Positions 2,962-63,755 of a DNA stretch of 64,000 nucleotides are shown piece after piece (within the stretch, counting starts at the first letter, position 1; each line of letters starts with the position of its first letter). Origin of the DNA: Candidatus Omnitrophota bacterium (GTDB lineage: Bacteria > Omnitrophota > Gorgyraeia > Tantalellales > Tantalellaceae); contig DAONGE010000004.1 of assembly GCA_035403965.1 (NCBI GenBank), positions 18,306 to 82,305 on the forward strand. The letters are read 5' to 3'. Both the position numbers and the translations under genes were made by a program. The notes under the pieces were generated by a model. That model did not search any database and was not told the DNA's origin. It saw nothing but the letters and a program-made list of their open reading frames with translations.

Positions 2962-2995
2962 TTCCCCCGCCTTTTCGCGCTCTTTTCCCAGTCTG

Positions 2996-7889: not shown

Positions 7890-10137
<2,248 letters not shown>

Positions 10138-47737: not shown

Positions 47738-49030
47738 TTAAACATCGAACTCTTCCCGATCCTGCAATATTTGCACGTTCTTAAACAATCTCGGGTATTG
47801 CCCAGACTCAAAAGTGTGAATCGGAATCAACTTGCCCGGGTTTAACGCTCCGGCAAAAACCTTTAAATCCTGTATTGTGGCATGACCGCTTGTATGAACA
47901 GTTTCAATATCCAATCCTTTTTGAGCGATAAAATCCTTAAATTTATCAGTCAAATATCCTTCCCACATTGAATAAATAATCTTTGCTCTCTCTATACCCT
48001 TGATATTCTTCACGAGTATGGGGAAAATAGAATTATCCCGTGCAAGCATCAAGACCTTATCCTTGATCGCATTAATCTCATCAATCTCAATCTTCCGAGT
48101 GTTGTAAGCATAGAGAAGTTTTACCGAGGCATTCTGAGCCAAAGAATCGGCGTGGCTCTTCAAAAATTTAACTCTGATATTTCGCCAGTTGAATTGAGGG
48201 ATATGTTTTGATACTTTCCTCAAACAATCAAGAATATACGCTGTATAAATATCAATCACGAATACATGATTTGTTTTAAGACAAGCCTTATACGCTGAAA
48301 CGATTCGGTCAATATTCTGAGATGATGCAAATAAAAACTTTATATTAGGGGTCGTCTTTAAAACTTTTTCCATGCAAGCTTGCACCGCCTGCTCATCTTT
48401 GAATAATTGTTCTCCTCTACCAATCATCGAACCTTCCAATAGCAAACAATCAATACCTTTCGGCGGCTTAGACACCATGCGCCTATAAAGCTCGCTTTTT
48501 CTTCCATGCCCCCTAAAATCTCCCGAATAAAAAACTTTCTTCCCATCAGCTTTAATCATGAAAGCGAGAGCGTCAAAAGCGGAGTGATCTACCAGATAAG
48601 GCGTGATTTCAAAATCACCAATGACCAGCTTCTTGCGCTTGTCTATAATTCTGGTATTTATTTTGCCGATTTTGTGCGGGGTAAATATATCCGACACCTC
48701 AATCAACGTCTTTGCCCCCTCGCTCATATATATAGGTATGCCGGGATGCACATACCGAAGCAATCCATAGTGATCCATGTGAGAATGCGATATGAGGATG
48801 GCGTCAACCGACCTCTCCTCATCTTTATAGAGGCCGCTCACGCTGGGAAGAATTTTTAATCTCCTCAATTCTTCCGGAGATTTACCAATCAAAGCCCTTG
48901 AATCAAACGATTCTTTTTGGGCGTTAACAAGCGGCAGTCCGAAATCGATCACGATCCGGTTTTTCTCCGTGAATACCTCTACGCAGGTCCCGCCAATTTC
49001 GGCTGTGCCTCTATGGATAATTAGCTTCAT
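47738..49030 (-). CDS. MBL-fold/beta-CASP nuclease (RNase J-like)
   Basis: 430 aa. HSHMDHYG motif and the C-terminal beta-CASP motif (HTSGHA). Last gene of a six-gene operon. Confidence 0.75.
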   Translation of the reverse strand: MKLIIHRGTAEIGGTCVEVFTEKNRIVIDFGLPLVNAQKESFDSRALIGKSPEELRRLKILPSVSGLYKDEERSVDAILISHSHMDHYGLLRYVHPGIPIYMSEGAKTLIEVSDIFTPHKIGKINTRIIDKRKKLVIGDFEITPYLVDHSAFDALAFMIKADGKKVFYSGDFRGHGRKSELYRRMVSKPPKGIDCLLLEGSMIGRGEQLFKDEQAVQACMEKVLKTTPNIKFLFASSQNIDRIVSAYKACLKTNHVFVIDIYTAYILDCLRKVSKHIPQFNWRNIRVKFLKSHADSLAQNASVKLLYAYNTRKIEIDEINAIKDKVLMLARDNSIFPILVKNIKGIERAKIIYSMWEGYLTDKFKDFIAQKGLDIETVHTSGHATIQDLKVFAGALNPGKLIPIHTFESGQYPRLFKNVQILQDREEFDV

Positions 49031-49866
49031 ATTAAATTATTAAACCTGATTTCATTCTTTATGTGTAAAACCTTAATATCAGGATGCTTCGCCTTAAGCT
49101 CGGCTATGCTTTTCTCCGCAAGACCGGAATATCCACCAACCACAACTATCCCGAGCACCCCTTCCACGATTTCGATTTTCAATCCACTCGGCATGAGTCC
49201 CAGTCCCTGCTTCTGAATGAAATTCAATTCGTAACTCTTTTTATATTGGGGAAAATTTCTTGTGATACGCTCAACGTACCCTTTGAGCTGTTGAAAAACG
49301 TCCTCTCGTAATTCCGGATTATTGCCAAGCTTCACCTCTATGACGCAAAATTGGTATTTCCCCGGCTCTGCCTGCTTGAGTCCCAGCAAGTCCATTTTGG
49401 TATCGTGATCACGATCAACAACCTGTCTGTCGATAACTATTAAATCTTCCCGGCCTACGTTATCCGTCAAAAGCATTTGCTCAAAAACAATCTCTTCTTG
49501 AAACTGAACAGCCTTGACCTTCTGCCCCATGGACGCCAAATTCCTTGAGCTAAAAAGCGGATGCAACTTCTTACTAGGTAAAATAAAAACAGCGTAATCC
49601 TTAACAATCGCTGGCGAAAAACGATTAATAATTGAATCATCCACAAATTTGCGGTGTATTTTTATCTCATAGACTTTTTGGCCAGCCCTATAAGATATTT
49701 TCCCTATACTATTGCCTTTATAATATAGATTTAAGTAGTCATCTCGAATCTGTAGCCCATATTCAAAACCGGACTCCTTAATTTTATCAATTAGGAAAAC
49801 GAAATCATCCCTGACAGCATCGTATGTTACGTCTGATAAATATCGACTGATTACGGGCTTGCTCAT
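49027..49866 (-). CDS. hypothetical protein with a PD-(D/E)xK nuclease-like C-terminal domain
   Basis: E...IVID...CVIEVKLG pattern. Overlaps both neighbours by 4 nt. Confidence 0.5.
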   Translation of the reverse strand: MSKPVISRYLSDVTYDAVRDDFVFLIDKIKESGFEYGLQIRDDYLNLYYKGNSIGKISYRAGQKVYEIKIHRKFVDDSIINRFSPAIVKDYAVFILPSKKLHPLFSSRNLASMGQKVKAVQFQEEIVFEQMLLTDNVGREDLIVIDRQVVDRDHDTKMDLLGLKQAEPGKYQFCVIEVKLGNNPELREDVFQQLKGYVERITRNFPQYKKSYELNFIQKQGLGLMPSGLKIEIVEGVLGIVVVGGYSGLAEKSIAELKAKHPDIKVLHIKNEIRFNNLI

Positions 49867-50954
49867 CGTCCCCCCTTAGGAAGCCCCTTTGCCAGAGCTT
49901 GAACTGATGCGCTAGCGTGCCTCAACAGGTTTTTTCTGTTAAATGTAATAAAGTCCGGGTGAGTTGAGAGTCGATACTGCTTCGATGCGTTATTCTCTAC
50001 AAACTTCTTGGCATCCTTACCCAGCAAACTCCCCTCAAGCGGTTTCCTAACGTGATCAAATATTTGATATTTACCCGCATCAACCTTCTTGGTAAGCCAA
50101 CCACCTTTTCCTTTCTTAAGCTCAACCAGCAATTCGATAAATAGAGTAAATGGCTTATCCGGCATTTTAATTTTATGCCCGTTTACCTCAAGGTCATTAC
50201 TCCGCTTCATTGGAGCGGTTCCCGGGATATGGATTTTATCGTAACATTTGTAGTCGAAATCCTTATAATCCTTCGCCTGTTTTTTAGTCAGAGCCGTAGC
50301 CCCACCCTCAGGCATAAATTCCTTAATGAGATCCTCAATCGACAATTTAAATGTTTTTAAATCGAGCGCCGTAGCAATGGGAACCGTGACTATCTGGCAT
50401 TTGCTCAAACCCCAGTTTAATAAAATATCCTCTATCTTCGTGAAAGGAGTAAAAACAACGAGAACCTTGTCATCTTTGCAAATGTCCTTTAACCCGACGA
50501 ATTTGACCAGCTTGCCGCCCCCAATCTTCGGCACAAAAACAAACCCAACCCGAAAACTATCGTAGAGCTTATACCCTACATAAAAATACCCTTCGGGGAT
50601 TTCTTGAAACTTTCCCTCGATCTTATTAACCGTCCGAATTTTCTCAAACAAGACCGGTATTGAAAGCTGATAACGCCGCAGATCCGCTTCTGTTACCTCA
50701 ATAGGCGCACTATCCGCTGACTCCACCGAGTATGCGTAAAATCGACTTCCAACCTTCTTGATCCTTCGCTCGTTACCATTATCCCCCAACGCCAACGAAT
50801 AATACGGCTCTTTCATATAGTCATACTTCATTCGGTCTAAACATTTTTGCTTGGTCAAAAAATTGAAATCGGTCTTTGAAATACGCACCAGCTCGCTCTC
50901 GGCAAACGACGCTGTGGGAAAAGCCTCAAGATTTTTTAATATGAAGTTTATCAC
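49863..50954 (-). CDS. hypothetical protein (363 aa), no recognisable domain
   Basis: Long ORF translationally coupled (ATGA overlaps) within the operon. Confidence 0.5.
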   Translation of the reverse strand: MINFILKNLEAFPTASFAESELVRISKTDFNFLTKQKCLDRMKYDYMKEPYYSLALGDNGNERRIKKVGSRFYAYSVESADSAPIEVTEADLRRYQLSIPVLFEKIRTVNKIEGKFQEIPEGYFYVGYKLYDSFRVGFVFVPKIGGGKLVKFVGLKDICKDDKVLVVFTPFTKIEDILLNWGLSKCQIVTVPIATALDLKTFKLSIEDLIKEFMPEGGATALTKKQAKDYKDFDYKCYDKIHIPGTAPMKRSNDLEVNGHKIKMPDKPFTLFIELLVELKKGKGGWLTKKVDAGKYQIFDHVRKPLEGSLLGKDAKKFVENNASKQYRLSTHPDFITFNRKNLLRHASASVQALAKGLPKGGR

Positions 50955-52057
50955 GTTAAAAGCACCCCATTGTCCCGCAGATACGTCTCAATGATCCCCT
51001 TCTCCGCTTTTTCGGGTAATTTCGTGTTCTCCGGCGGCTTGATCTCAACAGTTATTGACTTGGGCTTCTTACCGCCACGCTTAATGTAAAACCTTAATTT
51101 CGCTGAAACATATTCAGCGTCCTGCATGGATATGTTCAAGTCCGAGAACGCCTGCCGCACATCGCCGCAGTTAATCGTCACCTTAATGATCTTTGTGCCT
51201 CTGCACTTTACCTTCACCTCGGTTAAATCCACTGACTCGACATCATTATTCCCGGTATAGCTGAAAGTGCCGTTCTTAATGGGATCGAGAACAACCAAGG
51301 TGTTATTGAAAGTCGCCTCCGGCACCTGATCCATGCCAAGGATTGCGCTTCCGAATATCTCAATATACTTCTTTTTGTCCGCCTCGCTCCAGCCGCCAGC
51401 ATTAACACTTAGCACGCAATTCCTCGTGTCAAAAACAAGCATATCCTCTCTGGCCGGACGATAAGATTGGATATCGACTTTCCCATCATTAAAGATCAAG
51501 TGCGTTTTCATATAGTCGCCGTGGGCGATTAAAATGACGTGCTTGCCATCGTGCGTCCTGTATCGGATAGCGCAGTTCTCGCTCTTGCCGGTATCCTTAA
51601 AATGTTGCTCGATGGCCGTCTTTAACTGAGCGACACGATCCTCGGCGAAGTTACAGTTGTTATGATCGAATTTGTGGTGGCTTAATTTTTCGGAATAGAC
51701 AACATATAGGTAGAAGTCGAAGGCGAGTGAGAATGCTTCCTCGCTATGCAGAAAAACCCGCATGGCGGTTGTTTCCGACGGCTCATCATCTTGAGTGGTT
51801 ATGCTATATTGACGTTTCGCCTGTTCAAGATATCCTCTTGCCCGATCAGCGATATCGTTAATGCACTGCAACTCCTCCTCAACATAGGATCGTTTCCCAT
51901 CATCGGTGATGCCGTCCAAAAAATCGTGGATATTATTCCGGTCAAAAACAAAACCATCGGGAACCGGAACATTGCGCTTACTAAAATACGCCTTGAGTAG
52001 GTCGTTATTAACTCCCGTGACAAATTTTTCTAGTTTAAACGACCTATGCTTTGCCAT
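50951..52057 (-). CDS. hypothetical protein (368 aa), no recognisable domain
   Basis: Long ORF coupled within the operon. Confidence 0.5.
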   Translation of the reverse strand: MAKHRSFKLEKFVTGVNNDLLKAYFSKRNVPVPDGFVFDRNNIHDFLDGITDDGKRSYVEEELQCINDIADRARGYLEQAKRQYSITTQDDEPSETTAMRVFLHSEEAFSLAFDFYLYVVYSEKLSHHKFDHNNCNFAEDRVAQLKTAIEQHFKDTGKSENCAIRYRTHDGKHVILIAHGDYMKTHLIFNDGKVDIQSYRPAREDMLVFDTRNCVLSVNAGGWSEADKKKYIEIFGSAILGMDQVPEATFNNTLVVLDPIKNGTFSYTGNNDVESVDLTEVKVKCRGTKIIKVTINCGDVRQAFSDLNISMQDAEYVSAKLRFYIKRGGKKPKSITVEIKPPENTKLPEKAEKGIIETYLRDNGVLLT

Positions 52058-52065
52058 CTAACGCC

Positions 52066-53013
52066 TCATATTTTTAATGCCTTAATGTGCTTCTTCAGGG
52101 CATTGTCGAGCTTAATCATTGCATCAATCATATCGTCCTGCAATCTACCCCATTTATCTGGGTTATTGAGTCCGGCATAATCAAATCGCTTGCTGATCCT
52201 GCAAGCTCTTCGATCCTCCAGTCTGTCCCAGTTAAGTTTTTCACCAAACTCTTTATCAATCTCTGCACGATGAGAAACAAGTTCATCAAAAATGCGCTTG
52301 TTCTCTTCGTCAGACTCCTTGCCTCGATCGATATACAACTCTGCTTGCCCGTATTTATCAGTAACTGCGTAATTTAACCCCAATCCCCTAACGCCTGAAC
52401 TGGTTCCAATCCAGTTCGCAATTCCGGGTGATATGCTAGAGTGCAGATTTGTTTTCTTCTTGCTCTTCTCAAGCAATGACTTCCAAAACTCATAACGCTG
52501 ACTATCACGTTCAGCAATTTCTTTCTTTTCATCCCCAACAATTTTTGTCTTTTCGCTAGGGCCCGTCACTATGGTAAACTTTGCCGCTGGCTCTGAGTTA
52601 CCAATCTTGTATGCCTCGACCTGCACAAGATAAAACTTCACGCCGCTCCCGGTTTCATTAAGCCACTCGATGGCTCGCATGTGTTCAGCTCGAGGATTAC
52701 TTGAAACCCAAATAGCAGTTTTTGCATCAAGATTTGAAATATAGGTCAGAATCTGGCCAAGATGTCCATGGTCTGTTTTTTCGAGTTGGTTCTCGATCAA
52801 TACTTTTTGCCCAGAACTATCTTCGGCAATTATGTCCGCTGAAAACGAACCAACACTCTTCTCTTTTTCGTCAGCGGTTAACTTAAGATCAAGCTCTTCG
52901 CCGAGAACTTCCAAGTTTTCAAATAACCAACAGGTAAAATCTTTCGCTTCTTTTTTCCAGACATCACGCAATGGAACACGTTCCATTCTTCCGACCATAT
53001 TGCCACCTCCCAC
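52066..53013 (-). CDS. DUF4268-like protein with an N-terminal PD-(D/E)xK nuclease domain
   Basis: ADIIAEDSSGQKVLIENQLEKTDHGHLGQILTY matches the D...ExQ/K nuclease core typical of this family. Confidence 0.55.
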   Translation of the reverse strand: MGGGNMVGRMERVPLRDVWKKEAKDFTCWLFENLEVLGEELDLKLTADEKEKSVGSFSADIIAEDSSGQKVLIENQLEKTDHGHLGQILTYISNLDAKTAIWVSSNPRAEHMRAIEWLNETGSGVKFYLVQVEAYKIGNSEPAAKFTIVTGPSEKTKIVGDEKKEIAERDSQRYEFWKSLLEKSKKKTNLHSSISPGIANWIGTSSGVRGLGLNYAVTDKYGQAELYIDRGKESDEENKRIFDELVSHRAEIDKEFGEKLNWDRLEDRRACRISKRFDYAGLNNPDKWGRLQDDMIDAMIKLDNALKKHIKALKI

Positions 53014-53026
53014 TGAGCGTTATAAA

Positions 53027-53257
53027 TTAATGTTTTCTATCTTTGGGCGGACACGGATCCTTGCCAAAGCTATCCTTATCCTGAATCTTGCCATCACGCC
53101 CATGGATCACGAGCTCAGACTGCTGATGTTTCGCAATCTGCCTTCCGGCATTCTCAGCGGCGTTCTTTGTGCGATGCTCCGATGTTAGCTTTGAATTACC
53201 TTCACCACGAACACCCCAGCCAGCATCCGTCTTTACCACATGCTGATTCTTACCCAT
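53027..53257 (-). CDS. DUF2188-family small protein
   Basis: HVVKTDAGWGVRGEGNSK ... ELVIHGRDGKIQDKDSFGKDPCPP matches the DUF2188 pattern. AGGAGGTG RBS before the ATG at 53257. First gene of the operon. Confidence 0.65.
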   Translation of the reverse strand: MGKNQHVVKTDAGWGVRGEGNSKLTSEHRTKNAAENAGRQIAKHQQSELVIHGRDGKIQDKDSFGKDPCPPKDRKH

Positions 53258-53379
53258 ACCGCACCTCCTGCGTTTGCCAGTAAATAAAAAAACCTCCGCC
53301 AAGTGACAATAATAGCACTAGACGAAGGTTTTGCTTTTTTAACGTCCGGGATTTATTCCTTCTAACTCGGGACACTATA

Positions 53380-53455
53380 ATTTTACATAATAGTAGCTGT
53401 TTTGTCAATTCATAAATATAAGCAAATGGACAATTAAGGATATTAGTATTATAAT
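53380..53455. promoter_or_regulatory. divergent sigma70-type promoters
   Basis: Plus strand: -35 TGGACA (53427-53432), 17-bp spacer, -10 TATAAT (53450-53455), feeding the 53497 gene. Minus strand: -35 TTGACA (complement of 53403-53408), 17-bp spacer, -10 TAAAAT (complement of 53380-53385), feeding the DUF2188 operon. Confidence 0.55.
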
Positions 53456-53496: not shown

Positions 53497-54969
53497 ATGA
53501 AAACAATGGAAATATGGGCAGATAGCTTTCATGAAGGGGAATGGTTTGTTGCCAACATTGCCCCATTCTGTAAAAGCCAGAAGATTGACTATATTTATGG
53601 CTTTATCCCTAGCCACACCTTACAGATAGCTGACTCTGTTAATGTGAACTTTACAGTCTTTGGTAGCTATAAATCATGGGAAAACTTACCAGCCAAAATT
53701 GAAAAATTATTGGACTATGGTAAACCCGATATCATTATTTACGATCGGGATTCAGATACAGTTATTTTGGCAATCGAAGAAACAGCGGCCGTCCCTACTG
53801 GAAATCAGGCCCTACAAAGATGTGAGAGGATTTTTGGAAGCGCCTATCTCAAAACTCCTTTTTCCTACCTACTCCCTGAATATGGCATCCATACTGATGG
53901 ACAAAATAGAAGAACCAGTATTTGGCCAACTTTGTTGGCTCTCAAGCTATCCATTCAATTTGGAGTGCCGTCCGTTTCATTTATGTATTCGGATTCCGAT
54001 AATCCCGAGGATTATCACAAAGGCACTGGCCTTAAATCATTATTTGAATATTCATACTTGCAAATAAAAAAGCACCTTAACCTTCTAAGCGAGAATGAAA
54101 AGGAACGCCTCAAAAAAGTTCTTAGTGACCAAATAGGTCGAATGTGTACTTTTATTGTTGATCAATACGCAAATATAATTCATTACTTACCAAGCGTGGA
54201 ACAATTAAAAAATCATGAATTCGTCCATGCGTTAGCCCAGAAGATCTTAGATAAAAGCAATTCTGAAAATTTAAATCTAGACACTTTCTTAAATTGGCCT
54301 TGTAAAAAAGATATTGATGGATTATCCCCCCTGCTCGGCTATATAAACAAAGACTCTTTCCTTTCCGGAATTGATACCGCTATAGAAAACAATAACGGGT
54401 ACGTTATCTCTCAAGGAGTTGGAAGCAAACCACAAAGCAAAGAAAGTATTGATGAGTGGCTTTTATCACAAGCCAAGCAATCTAAAAAAATAAATATTGA
54501 TTATTTAAGTCCTGTTAAGTCATTCTTGAAAACTGAAAATGGAAATTACCATATTACAACGTCAAAAAATATTACTTACTTCCTTGATAATATTTTACAT
54601 ATCGACACGGCATTCCACGATGCCTTTCCAAAAAGAAACTTTAAGCCAAGCGACCTACTCAACAACCATAAAAACCTACCGGTGTTCTTATACATTTCGA
54701 ATTCGTTGAAACCAAACCGTATCTTCGGAGATCCCTTTACTGGCCAATTCGCAACATTCTCAAATCTTTTTTGCTTTACATGTTCTTACAGAAGATACCG
54801 ATCTTCAATTATTTATCTACCCTATGTTTCGGCGGGGTGTTTTTATGATAACTCCAATACTTTAGTCCAAAATAAAGGGCTATCGATTTATCTATTATTA
54901 GCAGATTTAATAATTTGTAATAACGGGTATGTTATTTCAATGATGGAGAAAGGCAAGCTCTATGCGTAA
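53497..54969 (+). CDS. putative restriction endonuclease, large ORF (490 aa)
   Basis: AT-rich gene convergent with two DNA methyltransferases. PD-(D/E)xK-like segment DIIIYDRDSDTVILAIEET. No other recognisable homology. Confidence 0.5.
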   Translation: MKTMEIWADSFHEGEWFVANIAPFCKSQKIDYIYGFIPSHTLQIADSVNVNFTVFGSYKSWENLPAKIEKLLDYGKPDIIIYDRDSDTVILAIEETAAVPTGNQALQRCERIFGSAYLKTPFSYLLPEYGIHTDGQNRRTSIWPTLLALKLSIQFGVPSVSFMYSDSDNPEDYHKGTGLKSLFEYSYLQIKKHLNLLSENEKERLKKVLSDQIGRMCTFIVDQYANIIHYLPSVEQLKNHEFVHALAQKILDKSNSENLNLDTFLNWPCKKDIDGLSPLLGYINKDSFLSGIDTAIENNNGYVISQGVGSKPQSKESIDEWLLSQAKQSKKINIDYLSPVKSFLKTENGNYHITTSKNITYFLDNILHIDTAFHDAFPKRNFKPSDLLNNHKNLPVFLYISNSLKPNRIFGDPFTGQFATFSNLFCFTCSYRRYRSSIIYLPYVSAGCFYDNSNTLVQNKGLSIYLLLADLIICNNGYVISMMEKGKLYA

Positions 54970-55567
54970 TAATCAAATAATATATTCAATATCCGAAGAA
55001 ATCGTGCGCTTCACATTTGAAGTCCACGTAAAACGAAGCGCTCCGGAGTGGAATATTTGTTTTACAAATCCAACAGCGGGTCCATGGAAAACAATTACTT
55101 ATGAGACGCCGGATAGCTCTATAAAAATTGGTCGATACGAAAGAGAAGAACAACGTCCCGATCTAATTCTTCTAAATAATAGTAAATCGGTTTGTTTAAT
55201 AGTTGAGGCTAAGGATGAGTTCAGCAAAATATCTTCGATGGATCAAATAAATAAATCTTTTAAGGTTTTTAAAAAAGAGGTTAAACGATTTCAGTCCTGC
55301 ACAAACCTGACTAATTACTTACGAAATAAGCTTTGTTTTATCGATGGTTTTTTGTGGTATTCATCGGACAAAAAATCGGCGGATATTTTTGCGGAATCTT
55401 ATTACAAAGAAACAAAAAGCGTCAACCCTCTTGTCTGCATTCTGATCTACAAACTTCCTGACAACTCCCTCGCTTGCGGTGGTTCATTGTTTTTTGCTCC
55501 AAACACAGACAAGAGCGATCACATCATCTCTTCCTTTCAGGAATTAATGCTAAAAAGGCTCAGTTGA
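54962..55567 (+). CDS. PD-(D/E)xK nuclease-like protein (second endonuclease ORF or subunit)
   Basis: RPDLILLNN ... VCLIVEAKDE is a classic PD..(D/E)xK pattern. Overlaps the upstream ORF by 8 nt in another frame. Confidence 0.5.
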   Translation: MRNNQIIYSISEEIVRFTFEVHVKRSAPEWNICFTNPTAGPWKTITYETPDSSIKIGRYEREEQRPDLILLNNSKSVCLIVEAKDEFSKISSMDQINKSFKVFKKEVKRFQSCTNLTNYLRNKLCFIDGFLWYSSDKKSADIFAESYYKETKSVNPLVCILIYKLPDNSLACGGSLFFAPNTDKSDHIISSFQELMLKRLS

Positions 55568-57417
55568 TTATCCGCTCTTAATTGATAAAGTTTCCCTTTT
55601 TTCTCTGCAACATTTTTTAACACATCAAGAATTTCTACAATTTCCGGAGCACGACTAAAATCATAATTATCTAAAACGTTCTTTACTATTTCCCACCCAT
55701 CACAGGATCCCTTTTGCAAGCGATCCTTAACTATAGCCTCAATGTCATTTTGAACCGGCGTCGTCTTTTCGTAAGTGGGAAGATACAATAATCGTGCCTC
55801 TTTTAATTCATTAAAATTCTCTTTCAGAAACTCTTCGGCATAATACAAATGATCGCAAGATAGTTGTTTTTTAAGAACGACGCCCACAATCACTCTGATT
55901 GCATGCGGCTTATAAATAACGCCTTCCCTTGCGCCCGCCATATTTCCGAACATTTCTTTCAATAAATCATTAAATTCTTTTTGGGACAACTTATTGCGCT
56001 GGCATTCACTAACCTTCTTAAACGTTACATAAAAATCTCCTAGATAACTCCCTTGGGGTGAAAATCGTGCCTTTGCAGGGATAACCGCAGGTAATGTCAG
56101 ACATATATCTTCAAAATTTAGTGAGGCCTGTTCCGAGGCTAAAAGCAACGAATGCCACGCATCAATAACTAAGTGGTTAAATGTAAAAGTTACACATCCA
56201 TTAAAACAGAGACTATTAACGGCTTTTTTTATACCATCGACCAATTCGTTTTTATAAATATCCCACGATTTATTCCGAGTTTTACTATCTGAAACTACTA
56301 TTTCTTTTTTATAATTTGGTTCTTTTTTTAACCAAGCGTTCCAGATAGCTGAAAATTCAAGGTAAGGAACACTGTCTCCATAAGGTGGGTCAGCGAAAAT
56401 ATATCCTATTTTCTTCTCAGATATCCTCTCTCCAACAGCATCTATCCCATCGGAATATATATATGTTTTAGTCCCTTCCTTGAGCAACACATTTATTCGA
56501 GCCAATGCATCCATTGTTTTTTTGAAGCGACTTTCAAACGCAACGAAAGGATTAGTTTCTAAATGAATAGCGGGAATCCAAAAGCCGGGAACAGACCACG
56601 CAGGTCCTCCCGTAGTTAAATCATTACGATAGGCAATAAGACGGCTACATTGTGTTGCTGTAGCAGTAAGATTAAGCAAAAAAATATTTCTTATAGTTTC
56701 GTCTTTAATAGCATGGATTTTATTTGCCATCTTCGACAAAACAGTGTATGCCCTAGGTGTATAAAATTTACGCAACGTCGTATCTTGATAACTTAATATC
56801 CTTTTGTTTACTATAAACCTCACATCGTAGATTTGCCCGATCTCGTCTTTTTTGTTAGCCTGAACCGTCTGTTGCTCAATATTCTTTTTATTGTTGATAT
56901 CGAGCTTTGATGTTAACAGAACCTTGATTACGTCAGATCCACTTATGGTGCCTAAATTTGCATTGTTTGCGGTTGAACACTGCGGACAAATATATTTTTT
57001 CCCTTTCTTTTTAACTCCCTTAATCGAATAAACATTTTCGCATTTTTGACATTTAAGACACACCTCATGGACGCAATACTTTACCATCCCGTGTTCAGTT
57101 TCATATGGCTGAGCATACTCCTTAAATAAATTCTTGAGGTTCTCATGCTCATCAATTATTTTGCTCATTATTACTTTTGTTGTTGAAACATTTCCGATTA
57201 AACCAGAAATTGGGTTGATATCAATTCCGATACTATTAATACCTAGTTTTGCTGATTCGATATTAGTAACACAGCTTCCGCAGAATGGATCTAATACATA
57301 AGCGTTTTCCAACGCATATTTTTTTATAAATGACGCCACAACATTATGGGGTTTTCTAGCCCAGTATTTGTGGATTAAATATTCAGAAGGATGCGTTTTG
57401 GCAACGTAAACTTTCAT
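55537..57417 (-). CDS. DNA methyltransferase (N6-adenine/N4-cytosine, DPPY type) with a zinc-ribbon insert
   Basis: Motif I LDPFCGSC, motif IV IFADPPYGD, and C-x2-C...C-x2-C between them. 626 aa. Confidence 0.75.
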   Translation of the reverse strand: MKVYVAKTHPSEYLIHKYWARKPHNVVASFIKKYALENAYVLDPFCGSCVTNIESAKLGINSIGIDINPISGLIGNVSTTKVIMSKIIDEHENLKNLFKEYAQPYETEHGMVKYCVHEVCLKCQKCENVYSIKGVKKKGKKYICPQCSTANNANLGTISGSDVIKVLLTSKLDINNKKNIEQQTVQANKKDEIGQIYDVRFIVNKRILSYQDTTLRKFYTPRAYTVLSKMANKIHAIKDETIRNIFLLNLTATATQCSRLIAYRNDLTTGGPAWSVPGFWIPAIHLETNPFVAFESRFKKTMDALARINVLLKEGTKTYIYSDGIDAVGERISEKKIGYIFADPPYGDSVPYLEFSAIWNAWLKKEPNYKKEIVVSDSKTRNKSWDIYKNELVDGIKKAVNSLCFNGCVTFTFNHLVIDAWHSLLLASEQASLNFEDICLTLPAVIPAKARFSPQGSYLGDFYVTFKKVSECQRNKLSQKEFNDLLKEMFGNMAGAREGVIYKPHAIRVIVGVVLKKQLSCDHLYYAEEFLKENFNELKEARLLYLPTYEKTTPVQNDIEAIVKDRLQKGSCDGWEIVKNVLDNYDFSRAPEIVEILDVLKNVAEKKGKLYQLRADNQLSLFSINS

Positions 57418-58637
57418 TTTTTCTTCTCAAATGTAAGTATAAAATCAGAAAGAACAATCCCGACCTTATCACCCTCTCTTCGTTGACTGGCAACCCAAGA
57501 AGCTTCGGTAAATTTAGGTCTTCTGATCGCAATATTAATCAATTCAAGATCTATATCCCGTAAACAATCCAACAATAAACGAGTGGTTGGAATGTGTTTC
57601 CCCCTTAATCGAGTATCCCCGATCATCAAAGAAAAATAAGTTTTCTTATTAATTTGAGAGGAAAGCGCTCTAATGCTATCCGCCATATCATCAACATATT
57701 TATGAACATTCTCTTCTTTCCCGATCTTGAAGAACTCCCTAACTTCGTTTTTTGATAATTCCTTATTCGAAATGCCAAGCCAAGGCAACTCTAGCGAAAA
57801 TATCGTACTAAATTTATACACATTAAAATACGGCGGATGGCATATTATAAGTTTTGGATTAATTTCCTTGAAATTCACATGACGCACATCCTCTCTTATA
57901 AATCGAGGCGAAGCAAAATTTTCCGGGAGAGCAGAAACTGCCTTTATGATTTTTTCGGCACTTTTGTTAAATTCTATAATGGGTTCGGATTGGGCAGACT
58001 TAACATCCAGAAATAAACGACCTTGCAAAGACGTTGCCTTTGATACTTTTCTTATAATTGAAATAAAAATACAATCAAATACTCGTCTAGTAATTTCGTC
58101 ATCAATATCATTAATTAAGCTCTTAATACGTTGTAAATTCTTAAATGTTTGAGGCAAATACCAATGCTCTATTCTGGACTCATCAAACGGAATTTTCAGA
58201 TCATAGTTTTTAGATGACAATTTTTTGTATTTCTCATTTAAATTACTTAATGTTTGCTTAAGTCGACTTCCTTTCACGTATTGACATTTGACATTAACCA
58301 ACAACTCGCTCAAAACGCTTACATCTGAACATACCACCTTACGATCCATCAATAAACACTCAAGAGCTGTGGTTCCACTACCACACATAGGGTCAAAAAC
58401 CATATCACCTATCTTTGTATATCTTGAAATTAAGCCCCTAGCTACGGGTGGAGGGAATTTTCCGAAAAACCTAAATATGGAATGAGTGAGATAGGCTAAT
58501 TTAATCGAAGAATGGGGTATATCCCAGACATCCGTTATACTGCTATAATCTTCCAATTTAGAATCTCTAAGCAGTTCTTTTTGATAATCCAGAGATATAG
58601 GATCCGTTGATATAACAATTTCGGGATACGTATTCAT
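57414..58637 (-). CDS. DNA methyltransferase (second MTase of the R-M module)
   Basis: Motif I VFDPMCGSGTT and motif IV ICHPPYFN. Overlaps the downstream MTase by 4 nt. Own promoter-like TTGAAA/TAAAAT at ~58665-58700 on the minus strand. Confidence 0.75.
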   Translation of the reverse strand: MNTYPEIVISTDPISLDYQKELLRDSKLEDYSSITDVWDIPHSSIKLAYLTHSIFRFFGKFPPPVARGLISRYTKIGDMVFDPMCGSGTTALECLLMDRKVVCSDVSVLSELLVNVKCQYVKGSRLKQTLSNLNEKYKKLSSKNYDLKIPFDESRIEHWYLPQTFKNLQRIKSLINDIDDEITRRVFDCIFISIIRKVSKATSLQGRLFLDVKSAQSEPIIEFNKSAEKIIKAVSALPENFASPRFIREDVRHVNFKEINPKLIICHPPYFNVYKFSTIFSLELPWLGISNKELSKNEVREFFKIGKEENVHKYVDDMADSIRALSSQINKKTYFSLMIGDTRLRGKHIPTTRLLLDCLRDIDLELINIAIRRPKFTEASWVASQRREGDKVGIVLSDFILTFEKKK

Positions 58638-58726: not shown

Positions 58727-59062
58727 TCACATAAGTTTTTTTACCTCAGAAATCATCGCACAAAAATAAAGATTTAAAATATCAGCAACAAACTTCATCT
58801 TCCCTCCGACATGCCAATCGGTATTTCGCTCCGGCTCAATCCGTGACTTGTAGTCATAAATCGTGAACACCAGCCCATTGATCCTACCAACCCACTCTGC
58901 CTTGATCTTGCCATCTGGTGAATTACCGAACTGCGGCTGGCCGAACACCCGGACGATATCCTCATAACGTGTACCTTCCGGCAAATACCCCTGACAGCCG
59001 GTGCCATCATGCGACACGCCGCCCATCTCAACCTTTAAATCAAGTTCCGCCTTAACTTTCAT
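58727..59062 (-). CDS. hypothetical small protein (111 aa), phage-like
   Basis: Overlapping-start/stop operon member; no confident domain. Confidence 0.45.
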   Translation of the reverse strand: MKVKAELDLKVEMGGVSHDGTGCQGYLPEGTRYEDIVRVFGQPQFGNSPDGKIKAEWVGRINGLVFTIYDYKSRIEPERNTDWHVGGKMKFVADILNLYFCAMISEVKKLM

Positions 59063-59342
59063 GGCTTACCTTTCTCTTGCCCCAGCCAGCCTTCCATCTG
59101 GCGACAGCTCCGGCCACAATCGTATCAACAGCTTTTTGATCGCCGATATTCTTTAACACTTCACTCAACTCCTGCTTATTTAGAACCCGAAAGTTTTTAA
59201 CCCCTCGTTCCTTAGCCGTCATCATAAGCTCGTTACGAGAAGCCCCGACATGCATAACAATCCCTTCTTTTGGAGATGCTAAACTTTCAGCTGAAACCTT
59301 TTTATTTTCTGCGACCTTTTGCTTTTTAGCTTTTTTAGCCAT
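59052..59342 (-). CDS. small basic protein with a Rho-N/SAP-like helix-extension-helix motif
   Basis: TAKERGVKNFRVLNKQELSEVLKNI resembles the Rho termination factor N-terminal domain. Lys-rich N-terminus. Confidence 0.45.
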   Translation of the reverse strand: MAKKAKKQKVAENKKVSAESLASPKEGIVMHVGASRNELMMTAKERGVKNFRVLNKQELSEVLKNIGDQKAVDTIVAGAVARWKAGWGKRKVSHES

Positions 59343-59361
59343 TGCGATATCCTCCTTTAAT

Positions 59362-59628
59362 TTACAGCACCGACTCTTGTAATTTACCGGTTACGACATC
59401 AAGCATTTGAAAGTGTGTGACACCGCCTTCCTTCCACTGCTGTTCGATCGTGATCGACCATTTGCCCAGCGGCATAACTCGCTGGATTTCCCGTAAGCGT
59501 AACTTAGCGGCCGGAAGATGATCCCGCATCCGCCCGGACACCGGGATATTCTCGACATACGTCTCATCGCCAGAATTATGGACGCTGATATACCGGCTCT
59601 TTTTCGCCGTCATGTTTTCACGAACCAT
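59362..59628 (-). CDS. hypothetical small protein (88 aa)
   Basis: Operon member, no domain recognised. Confidence 0.4.
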   Translation of the reverse strand: MVRENMTAKKSRYISVHNSGDETYVENIPVSGRMRDHLPAAKLRLREIQRVMPLGKWSITIEQQWKEGGVTHFQMLDVVTGKLQESVL

Positions 59629-59691
59629 AAAAATCCCCTCCTTTCGAGGGGTATAGGGCCATACGTTTTAATAGTTGGCAAGGCGTTTCTT

Positions 59692-60027
59692 CTAAAATTC
59701 CACCCGCACGCCAGCCTTACCACCCACGCCCTTGCGATTATCTGATTCGGCGAATCCATAGCCTTCCACAAAAGGACTGACCTCAATGCCGGGCTTCTCC
59801 TGCTTTTTCTGATCCACCGTCACCTGAGCGCCGGACTGAGCGATGATATGCGTTTCCTGCTTTGTGGTTTGCGTCGGCATAAAGAACGCACGATAAATCG
59901 TGAGCCCGACAAAACCAAGCAACGCTATGCCAGCCGCATAACGTAATGTTTTCACCCACGGTAATACCTGAGTGAAACTTCCCAAAAACTTCAATAAACT
60001 AAACTTCTCACCATCAGCCATATACAC
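59692..60027 (-). CDS. small membrane protein (111 aa), holin/spanin-like
   Basis: One or two TM helices then a hydrophilic tail. Confidence 0.4.
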   Translation of the reverse strand: MYMADGEKFSLLKFLGSFTQVLPWVKTLRYAAGIALLGFVGLTIYRAFFMPTQTTKQETHIIAQSGAQVTVDQKKQEKPGIEVSPFVEGYGFAESDNRKGVGGKAGVRVEF

Positions 60028-60028
60028 C

Positions 60029-60295
60029 TCACTTTCTTCCCGCTTTAAGATCGCTCCTGAGTTCGTCTATCGCCTTAATAATCCGGTCATTTTCTTTCTC
60101 GATAAACCGGCTCTGAATATCAAACTCCGCTTTCGACACATAAAGGCTTCTTGGCATGTGAATCTCGTCATTCGCCAGATGATGAAACAGCTTCTCATCA
60201 ATACGGTTGACCTGCGCAATAATAACCCCGAGCATGAATATCGTAATTGTCACCAGAACCGGCGTGATGAATTTAGTCCAGTTACCGCTCTGCAT
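60029..60295 (-). CDS. small membrane-anchored coiled-coil protein (88 aa), i-spanin-like
   Basis: N-terminal TM helix followed by a coiled coil. Confidence 0.4.
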   Translation of the reverse strand: MQSGNWTKFITPVLVTITIFMLGVIIAQVNRIDEKLFHHLANDEIHMPRSLYVSKAEFDIQSRFIEKENDRIIKAIDELRSDLKAGRK

Positions 60296-61508
60296 GATCG
60301 CCTTTCCCTTTTAACGCTTCCAATATCTCCTCGTTCTGCTTGGCGACATCAACCAATACCTTTCCGACCTTATAGAGCATGCGCTCACGCCTGTCAGCCA
60401 GCTCAACCGGCAAAAAGCCCAACGCCTGCTCGCTCTCAACAGCACATATCCGGCAATATTTCGTGATCGGCACCGTGAGTTCCTGATTGACCTTGTAGTG
60501 CGTGATCACGCAACTGTGACATGTGCGGGCGTGCGGGCAGTTCTTCCAACAGCCGGTGTATTCCTTGTCGATATTCAAAAAGATGCCCCGGATAAATGGT
60601 CGCTCGTGAAAGATATTCCCGAGCTTGAATATCCGTGCGCTGGCCGCACGATGACAAGGATAAACGTCACCGTTATCCAATATCGCAATATACGTCTTGC
60701 CAGCCTGACAGTATTCCTTCTCTGGTGGCGTCTCATCATTAACGATCCTGAGTGGCTTATCGATAAACGCTATCTCAAGCGGCAACCCCTGACGTTTGCA
60801 ATACCGGCGGTAATGATAAATCTGCGCCAGCTGATACCGGTACTGCTCGACCGCTTCCTCTGTCCAATCTTGCTCCATTACGGCGTGATGCATAATCTTC
60901 GTAATCCCAAGCTCATGCAAATACTGAACGTTGATCGCCAGCCGCCCGACTGTCTTGGGCGTGAACGTCATACGCACGCTCATATCCGGCTTAATCGCCA
61001 AAATACTTTTTATGTTCTCAATGATCCTCTTATAGTCGCCATGCCGGTATTCGGTATGCGTGATCTCATCGCCGTCACAGCTGACCTGAACCGCCATCCC
61101 CAGCTCGGCGAATTTCTTGAACACGCCCTCATCGAAAAACATACCGTTGGTAGAAATCGAGAATGTGGATGTATGCCGACCCTCTTTATCCGGCGGCCAC
61201 AGTTCCCGTGCGTATTGAGCAAGCTCAATCACCGTCTGCGGATAAAGTAACGGCTCACCACCAAAGAACGTAATCTGCAACCCCTGCGGGCTTAACTCCT
61301 TCATTCGAGCGAGAATCTTTTTTCCATGTTCGACCGAAAGCACCGCCTCAGTCTTTGGATGAAAACAATAATCACAATGCATATTGCACTGCTCGGTAAC
61401 GAACAAATCAATACTTTTGATTTCGTCTTTGGTCTTACCGCCGACCACTTCCTCGTTAGACATTAACCGCCTCCTTCTTTTCTTTTTCCAACTGAATATA
61501 TTTATCAA
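60282..61508 (-). CDS. radical SAM/SPASM-domain enzyme 1 (anSME-like)
   Basis: CNMHCDYC cluster plus a C-terminal SPASM Cys array (CQAGKTYIAILDNGDVYPC, CWKNCPHARTCHSC). Start is uncertain, either M1 or MSNEE. Confidence 0.8.
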   Translation of the reverse strand: MINIFSWKKKRRRRLMSNEEVVGGKTKDEIKSIDLFVTEQCNMHCDYCFHPKTEAVLSVEHGKKILARMKELSPQGLQITFFGGEPLLYPQTVIELAQYARELWPPDKEGRHTSTFSISTNGMFFDEGVFKKFAELGMAVQVSCDGDEITHTEYRHGDYKRIIENIKSILAIKPDMSVRMTFTPKTVGRLAINVQYLHELGITKIMHHAVMEQDWTEEAVEQYRYQLAQIYHYRRYCKRQGLPLEIAFIDKPLRIVNDETPPEKEYCQAGKTYIAILDNGDVYPCHRAASARIFKLGNIFHERPFIRGIFLNIDKEYTGCWKNCPHARTCHSCVITHYKVNQELTVPITKYCRICAVESEQALGFLPVELADRRERMLYKVGKVLVDVAKQNEEILEALKGKGDHAER

Positions 61509-62541
61509 TAACCTTCGCCAAAACCTTGTTCATAGCGCAATAACCCGGCTCCGGATTAAACATGTCGCCCATATGCTCAAGATTAAGCCCCAAACATTTA
61601 TTGCGAGGACACCGTTTATACAACTCGCAATCCTCACAGAACCTGCCGAGAAACTGCTCCCGATTAGCGTCTATCTCCCAAACGTAATCAAGTTTTGAGT
61701 AATCAATTCCCTCATACACTGACCCAAGTTTGTTATGCCTGCAGATATACATGTTGTCGCACTGCCAGATGCCACCCTCGGTATCAATAAAAAGCCGCTC
61801 AAGCCCTGTCCTGCAAAAATGAAATTCCCGCACCTGCGCCTTTAACCCGAACTCCCGCACATAAGCGTTGCTATGAAGCGCCGGGTTTAATGTTTGAAAC
61901 ATCTCAGCGTCCCGCTCATGCTCAATGAGCAACTCGAAATACTGATCAGCGAACCTCTCCAAATCTTCACGGCTGTGATCGTGCCTTGTGGCGAGGTCAA
62001 TCGTGATATTGCGGGTGATGTTCTCTGCGATAAAATCAAAATCCTCTTTCAGCTTCTCATACTCCACAACCATGAAATTAACGTTGTGATTCGGATTCTC
62101 CCTGACCAGATTCAGCATCCACGACTCAGCCTGCGCCTTCCCTTGAGGCCCGCCGTATTTTTCATAACAGTTCCCAAACGACCACGTGATCCCAATATTG
62201 CGATGCTTTGAGAAAAACTTATACATGCGCTCATCGACCAACGCTCCGTTTGTGTTCATATGAAAGAGCATCTGCGGATACTTCTCCATCACATGCTGGA
62301 TAACCTCGAAATTAACCGTTGGCTCACCACCCCAAAAATAAATAGTGAACTTAGGTGCGAGCTTGAGCTTTGAGAAACAAAAATCTAATATGTCATCCGC
62401 TATCTGCTTGGACATCTTCACAGGCCCGAGCGTTGATATCTTGTTGCGCTCAAACAATCCCCTGCGGTAGCAAAACGAGCAATTGGCGTTGCAGGCGTGC
62501 GTCAAATACAGATACACTGACTTGTAAATCGGAATCCTCAT
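61456..62541 (-). CDS. radical SAM/SPASM-domain enzyme 2 (paralog)
   Basis: CNANCSFC cluster plus SPASM (CRTGLERLFIDTEGGIWQCDNMY, CEDCELYKRCPRNKC). Confidence 0.8.
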   Translation of the reverse strand: MRIPIYKSVYLYLTHACNANCSFCYRRGLFERNKISTLGPVKMSKQIADDILDFCFSKLKLAPKFTIYFWGGEPTVNFEVIQHVMEKYPQMLFHMNTNGALVDERMYKFFSKHRNIGITWSFGNCYEKYGGPQGKAQAESWMLNLVRENPNHNVNFMVVEYEKLKEDFDFIAENITRNITIDLATRHDHSREDLERFADQYFELLIEHERDAEMFQTLNPALHSNAYVREFGLKAQVREFHFCRTGLERLFIDTEGGIWQCDNMYICRHNKLGSVYEGIDYSKLDYVWEIDANREQFLGRFCEDCELYKRCPRNKCLGLNLEHMGDMFNPEPGYCAMNKVLAKVIDKYIQLEKEKKEAVNV

Positions 62542-63755
62542 GCCCGCCCCTTGTAATAAAGCGTATCGACTCCAGTCTCGATCGCTTTCTTTACGATATA
62601 CTCATACGTCGCAGTCTCAATCCGATTCGCCCAGCAATGATTCGGCGCTGGCTTTAACGGATTGCCGGTGACGGTGTAATTCTCCGCCAAACACATCGCC
62701 CTTGGACAACACCTGATATCGCCGTCAAAACAAACCTCGCAATCCCGGCAATGCTCATACAGCTCATCAATCCAATCGCCCATCTTCTTGAAAAAGAACG
62801 CTGTGTCGTTAAACCCGTTCCGCACATCGCCAATCTTAAACTCCGGATAATTAGCGAAGAAATCGCAAGGATAAATCTCGCCTTTATTGTTCACCGCAAG
62901 ATATAAATATCCGCACCCGCAAAAAGTCGGCGGCACGTCCTTAAGCGGCATTCCCTTCATCTTGCGGTAAATGTTATTCTTCAATGCTATATCCCACTGA
63001 CTCCTGCCAAACTTCGGCTGGTCGCTAAAATAAACGTAATCCGCAATGCGTTTGAATAAATCCTTGAACTGCTCGTTCTTATTCCTAACCATATCCCAAT
63101 GCCGGGCAGATGATACCCTCACGATCGGCACACCGTATTCATACAACCGAATAATCTCCTCATAAATCCCCGGACGCTCCGGGTCATCAACCACGTAATG
63201 CACATCCCCGCCGTTGGCTTTAACCAAATCGAGCACCGCCTTGGCTTTATCCAAATAACCATCACCCAAAACACTGCGTAACGCCGACACGCTGACGCTC
63301 AAATTTAAATGATATTTGTGCCGCAATACCCATTCCCTGACATCCTCATTCTCCAAAAGCACAAGACCGTTCGTGGTGACAACGTAACGATACATGCAAT
63401 AGGTATCACAAAGATATCGAACCATCGGGAAATTCAAAAACGGTTCACCGCCAAAGATGCTGAACTTAATCCTGCGTTCATTGAACGTCCGGGAAACCCA
63501 GTCCATCGTTGAATCGATAACATCCTGCGTAATACCGGTATCCTTCTGTCTGAACTCTTTAGGCTGATAACAATAGGCGCATCGCAGATTGCAATCCTGC
63601 GTCATGAGAAAATACACTGTGGTGTATTCCTGCTTGCCGTCCGTTATCGAGTCGATATCAAACATCCCCTCGTCTTTATACCGCTTGATAACATCCCTGC
63701 ACTGTAACGGCAGGTCACCGGCCGCCTTGCTGTTCTTAAGTTCAAATACCGCCAT
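62538..63755 (-). CDS. radical SAM/SPASM-domain enzyme 3 (paralog)
   Basis: CNLRCAYC cluster plus SPASM (CGCGYLYLAVNNKGEIYPCDFF, CRDCEVCFDGDIRCCPRAMC). Confidence 0.8.
   Translation of the reverse strand: MAVFELKNSKAAGDLPLQCRDVIKRYKDEGMFDIDSITDGKQEYTTVYFLMTQDCNLRCAYCYQPKEFRQKDTGITQDVIDSTMDWVSRTFNERRIKFSIFGGEPFLNFPMVRYLCDTYCMYRYVVTTNGLVLLENEDVREWVLRHKYHLNLSVSVSALRSVLGDGYLDKAKAVLDLVKANGGDVHYVVDDPERPGIYEEIIRLYEYGVPIVRVSSARHWDMVRNKNEQFKDLFKRIADYVYFSDQPKFGRSQWDIALKNNIYRKMKGMPLKDVPPTFCGCGYLYLAVNNKGEIYPCDFFANYPEFKIGDVRNGFNDTAFFFKKMGDWIDELYEHCRDCEVCFDGDIRCCPRAMCLAENYTVTGNPLKPAPNHCWANRIETATYEYIVKKAIETGVDTLYYKGRA

Follow-up and report, generated by a model that had tools for sequence, protein, structure and literature searches.

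The window analysed here is a 64,000-nucleotide (nt) stretch of contig DAONGE010000004.1 from a Candidatus Omnitrophota genome, and its interval 47738-53302 is filled by six co-oriented open reading frames (ORFs) on the minus strand. A sequence-only reading of the same DNA had placed these six genes largely correctly and had taken them for a candidate undescribed, nuclease-rich defence or anti-mobile-element system. Our analysis leads to another picture, in which the locus is a candidate defence-island composite: two gene pairs, each a candidate new system, and a candidate new cis-regulatory RNA lie next to a nuclease gene of an already named family. The genes are called g1 to g6 in the order of their transcription, with G3 and G4 denoting the proteins of 368 and 363 amino acids (aa). 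The features of the cluster are:

53427-53455, plus strand: sigma70-like promoter of the restriction-modification (R-M) endonuclease gene, divergent from the cluster promoter
53380-53408, minus strand: sigma70-like promoter of the cluster, TTGACA, 17-nt spacer, TAAAAT, 11 of 12 consensus matches
53282-53374, minus strand: structured leader RNA of 93 nt (covariance model R1: 104 bits, E ~1e-19)
53027-53257, minus strand: g1, 76-aa DUF2188 protein, PADLOC candidate PDC-S16, isoelectric point 9.9, first gene past the leader
52066-52998, minus strand: g2, NucS-like PD-(D/E)xK nuclease with DUF4268, PADLOC PDC-S11, MdgA architecture
50951-52057, minus strand: G3, 368-aa protein without a Pfam family, predicted RdgC/RexA/YejK/CENP-N-L DNA-clamp fold
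49863-50954, minus strand: G4, 363-aa basic protein, GTG start overlapping the G3 stop, three predicted domains
49027-49866, minus strand: g5, 279-aa protein without a Pfam family, intact PD-(D/E)xK motif (D159, E177-x-K179)
47738-49030, minus strand: g6, 430-aa metallo-beta-lactamase (MBL)/beta-CASP nuclease with HSHMDH at residues 82-87 and an RMMBL motif

Most of the cluster is as tightly packed as first described. ATGA overlaps join g5 to g6 and G4 to g5, a GTGA overlap joins G3 to G4, and 8 nt separate g2 from G3; between g1 and g2, the preferred, Shine-Dalgarno-supported starts (ATG at 53257 for g1, giving 76 aa behind a GGAGG, and ATG at 52998 for g2) leave a gap of about 28 nt and not of 13. 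The proposed shared promoter divergent from the R-M endonuclease gene was located, both near-consensus promoters lying inside the 194-nt gap between g1 and the oppositely oriented endonuclease gene. Terminator-like sites within the cluster show no excess over shuffled sequence, and in this genome a single promoter probably drives transcription of all six genes. Database proteins 100% identical to G4 and g5 carry the consecutive locus tags PKY78_01845 and PKY78_01840.

The earlier domain calls were upheld by Pfam (DUF2188 in g1, E = 4.9e-22; DUF4268 at the C-terminus of g2, 3e-30; Lactamase_B_2 and RMMBL in g6), as was the lack of a Pfam match in G3, G4 and likewise g5, and PD-(D/E)xK motifs are seen in g2 (D60 and ENQLEK at 74-79) and g5 (D159, E177-V-K179). 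The label “rich in nucleases” fits g2, g5 and g6 and does not extend to G4, whose nuclease-like domain lacks conserved catalytic residues. The picture of a compositionally distinct island bordered by tRNA-3′-end fragments did not survive. Low GC content (0.34-0.37) is limited to the R-M block at 54-59 kb, while the six genes (0.41-0.47) lie around the window mean of ~0.44. There is no tRNA or any other Rfam match at E<=1 in 44-64 kb, no 13-mer or longer from the window's own tRNAs near the cluster, and the 15 T-loop-like 11-mers are at chance level (8.7 +/- 3.1 expected); the tRNA fragments were dropped on these three scans.

Whether the six genes belong together was judged from about 130 related loci taken from genomes, metagenomes and IMG/VR (labelled L001 and so on). 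The full set of six is shared only by a near-identical relative (L044), and the five genes other than g2 are shared as a set only by a close Omnitrophota clade (L018, L045, L046, L048). Relatives with a 90%-identical G3 (L008-L012, L020) lack g5-g6. The idea of one conserved six-gene system fails on this distribution, and of the co-occurrence of the six families that had been suggested as a check, what is kept elsewhere are the pairs G3-G4 and g5-g6, with the full set confined to close relatives. Beyond the close clade the set splits, on these sequence comparisons, into the independent units G3-G4, g5-g6, DUF2188 and DUF4268. On balance we favour the view that the six genes are four separately mobile defence-island modules set head to tail, namely a proposed regulatory front end made up of the leader RNA and g1, then g2, G3-G4 and g5-g6. 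This view is built from gene structure, homology, predicted folds, co-occurrence and RNA covariation, and the functions and mechanisms proposed below are all deduced from these.

The first of the two pairs, G3-G4, is widespread. Homologues form 88 clusters for G3 and 131 for G4, spread over Omnitrophota, Elusimicrobiota, Margulisiibacteriota, Marinimicrobia and others, and the two are often found on the same contigs. Wherever the contig continues, G4 directly follows G3, with stop and start codons overlapping or nearly abutting; this holds for about 29 loci in the lineages just named as well as in Ignavibacteria, Brevinema and others. An exhaustive profile search with G3 yielded 862 representatives of 50%-identity clusters at E<=1e-3, and in the two distant relatives that were inspected the downstream genes match the G4 profile with hhalign probabilities of 99.6% and 97.9%. 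Judged by the identities of the two proteins (for example, G3/G4 52%/37% in L001, 50%/22% in L021 and 38%/26% in L005), G3 evolves more slowly than G4.

The statement that no named system is matched stood for four of the six genes. In searches of the PADLOC profiles g2 is PDC-S11, now Madara (E 1e-126), and g1 is the candidate PDC-S16, while G3, G4, g5 and g6 have no significant match. When every alignment member was scanned at E<=1, G3, G4 and g5 gave chance-level matches only in Pfam, NCBIfam and PHROGs, and their profiles have no significant match among PDB sequences; no named system resembling G3-G4 or g5-g6 is described in the literature searched. By these comparisons G3-G4 is an unnamed, obligatorily paired module absent from Pfam and PADLOC annotation. 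A conserved third gene downstream of G4 was considered and rejected, the downstream genes being unrelated to one another. In L008/L009 (11107-13755) the G4 ORF runs without a stop into the downstream gene to give an 882-aa ORF. An effector fused to G4 was rejected there, since the extension opens with a signal peptide and has the look of read-through; the ORF is probably due to stop-codon loss or an assembly artefact.

The surroundings of the pair bear out the proposed defence-island setting. Among 121 immediate neighbours of 23 non-redundant G3-G4 loci R-M components dominate, with nine N6_N4 methyltransferases, seven ResIII, five type III Mod, three type I HsdR and two GmrSD proteins; HindIII is found too. 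Directly upstream of the pair and co-oriented with it are type III Mod-Res genes in L013, L017 and L034; the upstream position is taken by type I HsdR in L001 and L028 and by two methyltransferases with a helicase in L003. AIPR and AbiEi stand beside G3-G4 in some loci, and in the window itself the cluster adjoins a type II R-M system.

G3 is predicted to belong to the RdgC/RexA/YejK/CENP-N-L DNA-clamp superfamily. For G4 the predicted layout comprises an N-terminal winged helix (residues 1-~118), a middle alpha/beta domain resembling restriction endonucleases and a C-terminal winged helix-turn-helix (wHTH) of the OmpR/PhoB type. Across 41 homologues the middle domain (residues 115-215) has no acidic column conserved to 80% or more and no conserved D...ExK, and because neither acidic nor ExK columns are conserved we take it as non-catalytic, a nuclease in predicted fold only. 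G4 appears soluble and basic, without a transmembrane (TM) segment (no hydrophobic 19-mer above 1.26 on the Kyte-Doolittle scale). Its parts can be found apart from each other: residues 1-118 are missing from the 250-aa homologues that make up about 20 clusters, and in the chimeric homologue P0205 a receiver domain (PF00072) replaces everything before the wHTH. In L010 a gap of 15 nt separates a patatin gene (8798-9985) from the full G3-G4 pair downstream of it, and in L042 a 90%-identical patatin gene (2776-3936) is followed after 22 nt by a 249-aa G4 homologue without residues 1-118, in a SIR2-HerA island that has no G3. Because one such short G4 form occurs with a closely similar patatin but without G3, the sequences suggest that the N-terminal domain is the G3-specific part of G4 and that the G4 core can team with an effector.

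Comparison with known systems gives partial likenesses. Lambda RexA was placed by crystallography in the RdgC/Iml3-Chl4 (CENP-L/N) DNA-clamp fold group (PMC11077077), and in PANGU systems infection is sensed by YejK-like members of the clamp fold (bioRxiv 10.64898/2026.04.06.716658). By its predicted fold G3 may belong with RexA to this group, a group of non-specific DNA binders, and both sit in two-gene units; in L127 (6347-9155) a very distant G3-G4 pair directly follows a LexA/CI-like S24 repressor, beside a serine recombinase (integrase), a position that mirrors cI-rexA-rexB. The partners differ, RexB being a polytopic membrane protein whereas G4 is a predicted globular three-domain protein without a hydrophobic segment. 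PANGU effectors are GRel toxSAS or transmembrane proteins, whereas G4 is a wHTH protein with neither catalytic motif nor TM segment; G3 itself carries an extra N-terminal helical domain and is not detected by Pfam NA37 or any Pfam family at E<=1. With OmpR/PhoB response regulators G4 shares the winged-helix effector domain but not the receiver domain (no Response_reg match), its N-terminus being a predicted winged helix. From these regulators, and from those of defence islands (BrxR, CapH-CapP, R-M C proteins), it further differs in its degenerate nuclease-like domain and its strict pairing with G3. San Juan (sjdAB) was rejected as a match for G3-G4, given that sjdB has four TM helices.

In the reading that we favour for the pair, G3 would clamp DNA and report an abnormal state, as RexA and the YejK-like sensor of PANGU do. 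The G3-specific N-terminal part of G4 would relay the signal to the wHTH, and the output would be DNA binding or transcriptional control, not catalysis. This control may include co-located effectors, the g5-g6 nucleases here and a patatin phospholipase elsewhere.

The main rival is assembled from the same parts and makes G3-G4 a sensor-regulator cassette in place of a self-contained defence system; it would form a four-gene unit with the g5-g6 effectors in this lineage and would control a patatin phospholipase or adjacent R-M genes in others. It accommodates the OmpR-type wHTH as the output domain of G4 and the use of the same wHTH as the output of the receiver-domain protein P0205, the lack of conserved catalytic residues in G4, the 90%-identical patatin beside G3-G4 in L010 and beside short G4 in L042, the ATGA overlaps at G4/g5 and g5/g6, and the occurrence of g5-g6 next to a 24%-identical G4 variant (L047, L061). 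Most G3-G4 loci, however, have no conserved effector-like neighbour, and what lies downstream varies greatly and in many cases has no relation to defence. The pair usually stands at the 3′ end of its operon, whereas known defence regulators lie upstream or divergent, and both g5-g6 and patatin mostly occur without G3-G4. We regard the cassette as possible, if unlikely.

The second pair, g5-g6, is predicted from its sequences to combine a PD-(D/E)xK endonuclease with a beta-CASP nuclease and to be independent of the first. Residues D159, E177 and K179 of g5 are invariant in 33 homologues, homologue clusters number more than 369, and PADLOC PDC-S18 is matched weakly (1.6e-4). Among 80 metagenomic g5 loci, a g6-type MBL gene follows g5 in 44 of the 56 that have room for it, at spacings of -1 to 111 nt; G3/G4 are near g5 in six of the 80, all close relatives of the window. 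For g6, the score against TIGR00649 (RNase J) is 70 bits with a cutoff of 400, and the PDB sequence matches are EF2904 (2AZ4; 1.6e-19) and RNase J (1e-12), and by sequence it is a distinct subfamily whose closest solved relative is EF2904, with RNase J second. It has the HxHxDH MBL motif, beta-CASP insertion and RMMBL motif of these proteins and the length of EF2904. Unlike RNase J, it is far under the family cutoff, has 430 aa without the RNase J C-terminal domain, and is encoded with a PD-(D/E)xK partner, sometimes also DUF6508, in mobile or defence contexts. In the proposed mechanism g5 would nick or cut nucleic acid, which g6 would then degrade.

The contexts of g5-g6 include Dcm/Vsr/HNH genes, type ISP R-M, primase-polymerase and integrase. 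A DUF6508 gene often precedes g5 and is apparently fused to it in L102 and L103 (441-aa ORF); some DUF6508-g5 loci (the set L030-L033, L102 and L103) have no MBL gene. DUF6508 is not mentioned in the literature searched. Homology of g5 to DUF6508 was rejected, as was homology to the small ORFs beside proteobacterial g6 homologues (hhalign probability <2% in both cases). A tblastn search with g5 against plasmids gave no match. Plasmid homologues of g6, 30-35% identical (Rhizobium, Ochrobactrum), lie beside Eco57I-type and GIY-YIG or PD-(D/E)xK/UvrD genes and have different small partners. Two of the plasmid loci (L124 from Rhizobium phaseoli and L125 from Ochrobactrum) carry full-length g6-type beta-CASP genes with 33-35% identity, unrelated small upstream ORFs and a downstream ORF of ~320 aa.

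Ahead of the two pairs stand g1 and g2, for which named families exist. g2 aligns to PADLOC PDC-S11 over its full length (E 1.2e-126, residues 6-314 on profile positions 4-312 of 314) and has a weak NucS match (1.4e-4, residues 24-99); because of these two matches, the ENQLEK motif and the DUF4268 domain it is placed by sequence in the PDC-S11/Madara family. PDC-S11 was validated in E. coli ECOR34 and renamed Madara, a modification-dependent system with a NucS-like PD-(D/E)xK domain (bioRxiv 10.64898/2026.09.05.749240), and the DUF4268 nuclease MdgA, found by metagenomic selection, degrades T4 DNA and acts far less on unmodified T4-GT7 DNA (bioRxiv 10.1101/2025.02.28.640651). Restriction of hypermodified T-even-like phage DNA, and not of unmodified DNA, is reported for both (bioRxiv 10.64898/2026.09.05.749240; 10.1101/2025.02.28.640651). 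From its sequence, g2 is predicted to be a modification-dependent, type IV-like nuclease that would cut hypermodified phage DNA. Madara resembles g2 in the full-length profile match and the NucS-like PD-(D/E)xK plus DUF4268 architecture, and as Madara adjoins BREX, so g2 adjoins an R-M-type system; they differ in that Madara comes from E. coli and g2 from Omnitrophota, where it lies inside a longer operon and is known from sequence. In L001 and L014, from unrelated lineages, g2 homologues also adjoin G3-G4, and the identities do not agree. In L001 the g2 homologue is 81% identical and G3 52%, and therefore g2 appears to have moved independently.

The small protein g1 matches PDC-S16 (3.8e-34) and phrog_3220 (4e-28) besides DUF2188. 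In the literature searched we found no validation of PDC-S16, a family that has the status of a candidate only. About half of the G3-G4 loci have DUF2188 next to the pair, on its upstream side in the Omnitrophota clade and in L017 and L021, on its downstream side in L003 and L022. A survey lists an operon of “DUF2188 + two hypothetical proteins” under CapH/CapP control (bioRxiv 10.1101/2022.04.27.489752); this operon, from Extensimonas perlucida, may be a homologue of G3-G4.

Alignment of the regions upstream of DUF2188 led to the leader RNA, which the sequence-only reading had not noticed, and to its covariance model R1. The first nucleotide of the leader is the predicted +1, about 6 nt past the -10 element, and 24 nt separate its end from the g1 start codon. 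Its 5′ hairpin (GUCC...GGAC around GGG-AUAAAU-CCC) is connected by an A-rich linker to a second hairpin of 17 bp, which together with the U-run behind it is shaped like an intrinsic terminator. Among 19 instances, 95.3% of the pair cells are paired and ten pairs show compensatory double changes; none of 500 shuffles reaches the observed pairing, and slid registers give 35-56%. Rfam holds no family matching at its gathering score (best 21 bits against the required 90 in a 191-nt scan), in line with the empty scan of 44-64 kb.

The leader recurs in front of varied operons. Model matches precede DUF2188-G3-G4 operons at E 1e-10 to 1e-23; in L005 (3731-3841), L026 (3066-3177) and L028 (9865-9973), whose G3 is 33-38% identical, and in L007 (9890-9979) the leader stands directly before G3. 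Elsewhere it stands before a ~60-aa ribbon-helix-helix (RHH)-like protein, followed by type III Mod (L013, 83-167), DUF4268-G3-G4 (L014, 567-656) or other genes. An exact-pattern scan of IMG/VR added five leaders (L128-L132): two precede DUF2188 (L130, and L128 with a PD-(D/E)xK-like gene and a Dam-like methylase behind DUF2188), another two stand before RHH and a C5 methylase, and one stands before RHH and HsdM/HsdS. On the sequences compared, the leader thus precedes DUF2188-, G3- or RHH-led defence operons, those of type I, II and III R-M included.

The invariant GAAGG of the 5′ hairpin duplicates the terminator 3′ arm and complements the invariant CCUUC of the terminator 5′ arm, from which we infer an antiterminator layout. 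Transcription would start at 53374 and mostly stop at the leader terminator, and a signal or protein acting on the 5′ hairpin would permit read-through, with GAAGG competing with the terminator 3′ arm for CCUUC to form the antiterminator. We infer that the leader is a transcription attenuator that holds toxic defence genes low until a signal arrives. The element could instead be a small independent RNA gene, or a promoter-proximal terminator travelling with the cassette. With initiation at the predicted +1 and a terminator at the other end, the element would give a discrete RNA of ~93 nt, and its covariation lies mostly in the terminator stem, with the 5′ hairpin conserved mainly in sequence. 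This alternative is doubtful: all 24 examined instances share the strand of their operon and none is more than ~180 nt upstream of its first gene, conservation of the 5′ part goes far beyond what a plain terminator requires, and the GAAGG/CCUUC arrangement fits an attenuator.

Taken jointly, that the leader is a new class of attenuator or riboswitch for many defence operons and that G3-G4 is a new phage-exclusion family is a reading that we consider possible, if unlikely. A further account of G3-G4 is that the pair serves mobile-element housekeeping (prophage switch control, superinfection immunity or nucleoid organisation) and that defence islands are hot spots for such cargo. The L127 pair follows its repressor as rexAB follows cI in lambda, and RexA biases the lambda switch as well (PMC11077077); in L039 the pair lies at a prophage end, between phage genes and a serine recombinase, with a KAP NTPase and a type IIG R-M system, and in L040 within an element with a primase-polymerase. 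Four IMG/VR contigs carry G3-G4, and there is a weak full-length match to phrog_37634. Many loci, however, have no phage or element genes within 10 kb, the pair stands directly behind chromosomal R-M operons, and tblastn with G3 against 50,697 phage records and 72,556 plasmids gave no match; we consider such a housekeeping role distinctly improbable.

The modular reading, with G3 as a sensor of DNA state and the leader as attenuator, has points of its own to face. The five-gene form persists in L048 at 78% (g5) and 60% (g6) identity, and ~88%-identical g5-g6 follow a 24%-identical G4-like gene in L047 (29-979) and L061 (111-1181), an arrangement that, by sequence, indicates shuffling between G4 lineages and the nuclease pair; G3-G4 and g5-g6 may therefore be functionally linked in this lineage, and the ATGA overlaps argue for coordinated expression. 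The strongly conserved polar motifs of G3 (H4, N67-D68, H127-H128, D181, R200, E204-D205) could mark an unrecognised catalytic site, and with no recognisable effector activity in G3-G4 the proposed output is a guess. The antiterminator pairing has no covariation behind it because its bases never vary, and the window's single leader sequence folds no better than shuffles (z = -1.2), so that the evidence for leader structure is comparative only. That all six proteins act together as one multi-component defence system, as overlapping or nearly abutting genes, one promoter, no internal terminator and the six- and five-gene forms in L044 and in L018, L045, L046 and L048 might suggest, is nevertheless very improbable, given that co-occurrence collapses outside one Omnitrophota clade, that the relatives with 90%-identical G3 (L008-L012, L020) lack g5-g6 and 74 of 80 g5 loci lack G3/G4, and that g2 is missing from the five-gene relatives and alone matches a validated single-gene system.

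What had appeared as a six-gene system is thereby broken into testable units, of which the two gene pairs and the leader RNA are not described in the libraries and literature searched, while g2 (Madara) is already named and g1 is a named candidate. If the joint claim is true, the leader would put many unrelated defence operons (type I, II and III R-M, Madara-like nucleases, G3-G4) under one signal in Omnitrophota and neighbouring phyla, with DUF2188 or a small RHH protein as its cognate first-gene partner. It would suggest an RNA-level switch common to the defence islands of poorly studied phyla, and would bear on how toxic immune genes stay silent and are then co-induced. G3, as an RdgC/RexA-fold clamp, would sense aberrant DNA and act via a transcription-factor-like partner instead of a toxin, extending the recent RexA/PANGU idea of RdgC/YejK-fold clamps as infection sensors. 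The g5-g6 pair would bring a beta-CASP nuclease among the defence effectors. All of this is set in uncultured lineages whose defence biology is almost entirely uncharted experimentally.

Beside the cluster lies one further defence locus:

53497-58637, both strands: R-M system with a 490-aa type II nicking-type endonuclease (plus), a 201-aa ORF (plus) and two N6/N4 methyltransferases (minus)

Its PADLOC matches are REase_II (3e-103) and MTase_II (8e-121 and 8e-91). The 201-aa ORF overlaps the endonuclease gene and has weak PD-(D/E)xK (HSDR_N_2) similarity, and the layout resembles that of heterodimeric nicking/type IIS enzymes such as BspD6I. Further on, at 58727-63755 on the minus strand, three tandem radical S-adenosylmethionine (SAM) paralogues (393, 361 and 405 aa) precede five small ORFs (111, 96, 88, 109 and 88 aa). 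This group may be a maturase/precursor cluster like those of ribosomally synthesised and post-translationally modified peptides, and homologues of its small ORFs recur near G3-G4 loci of related genomes.

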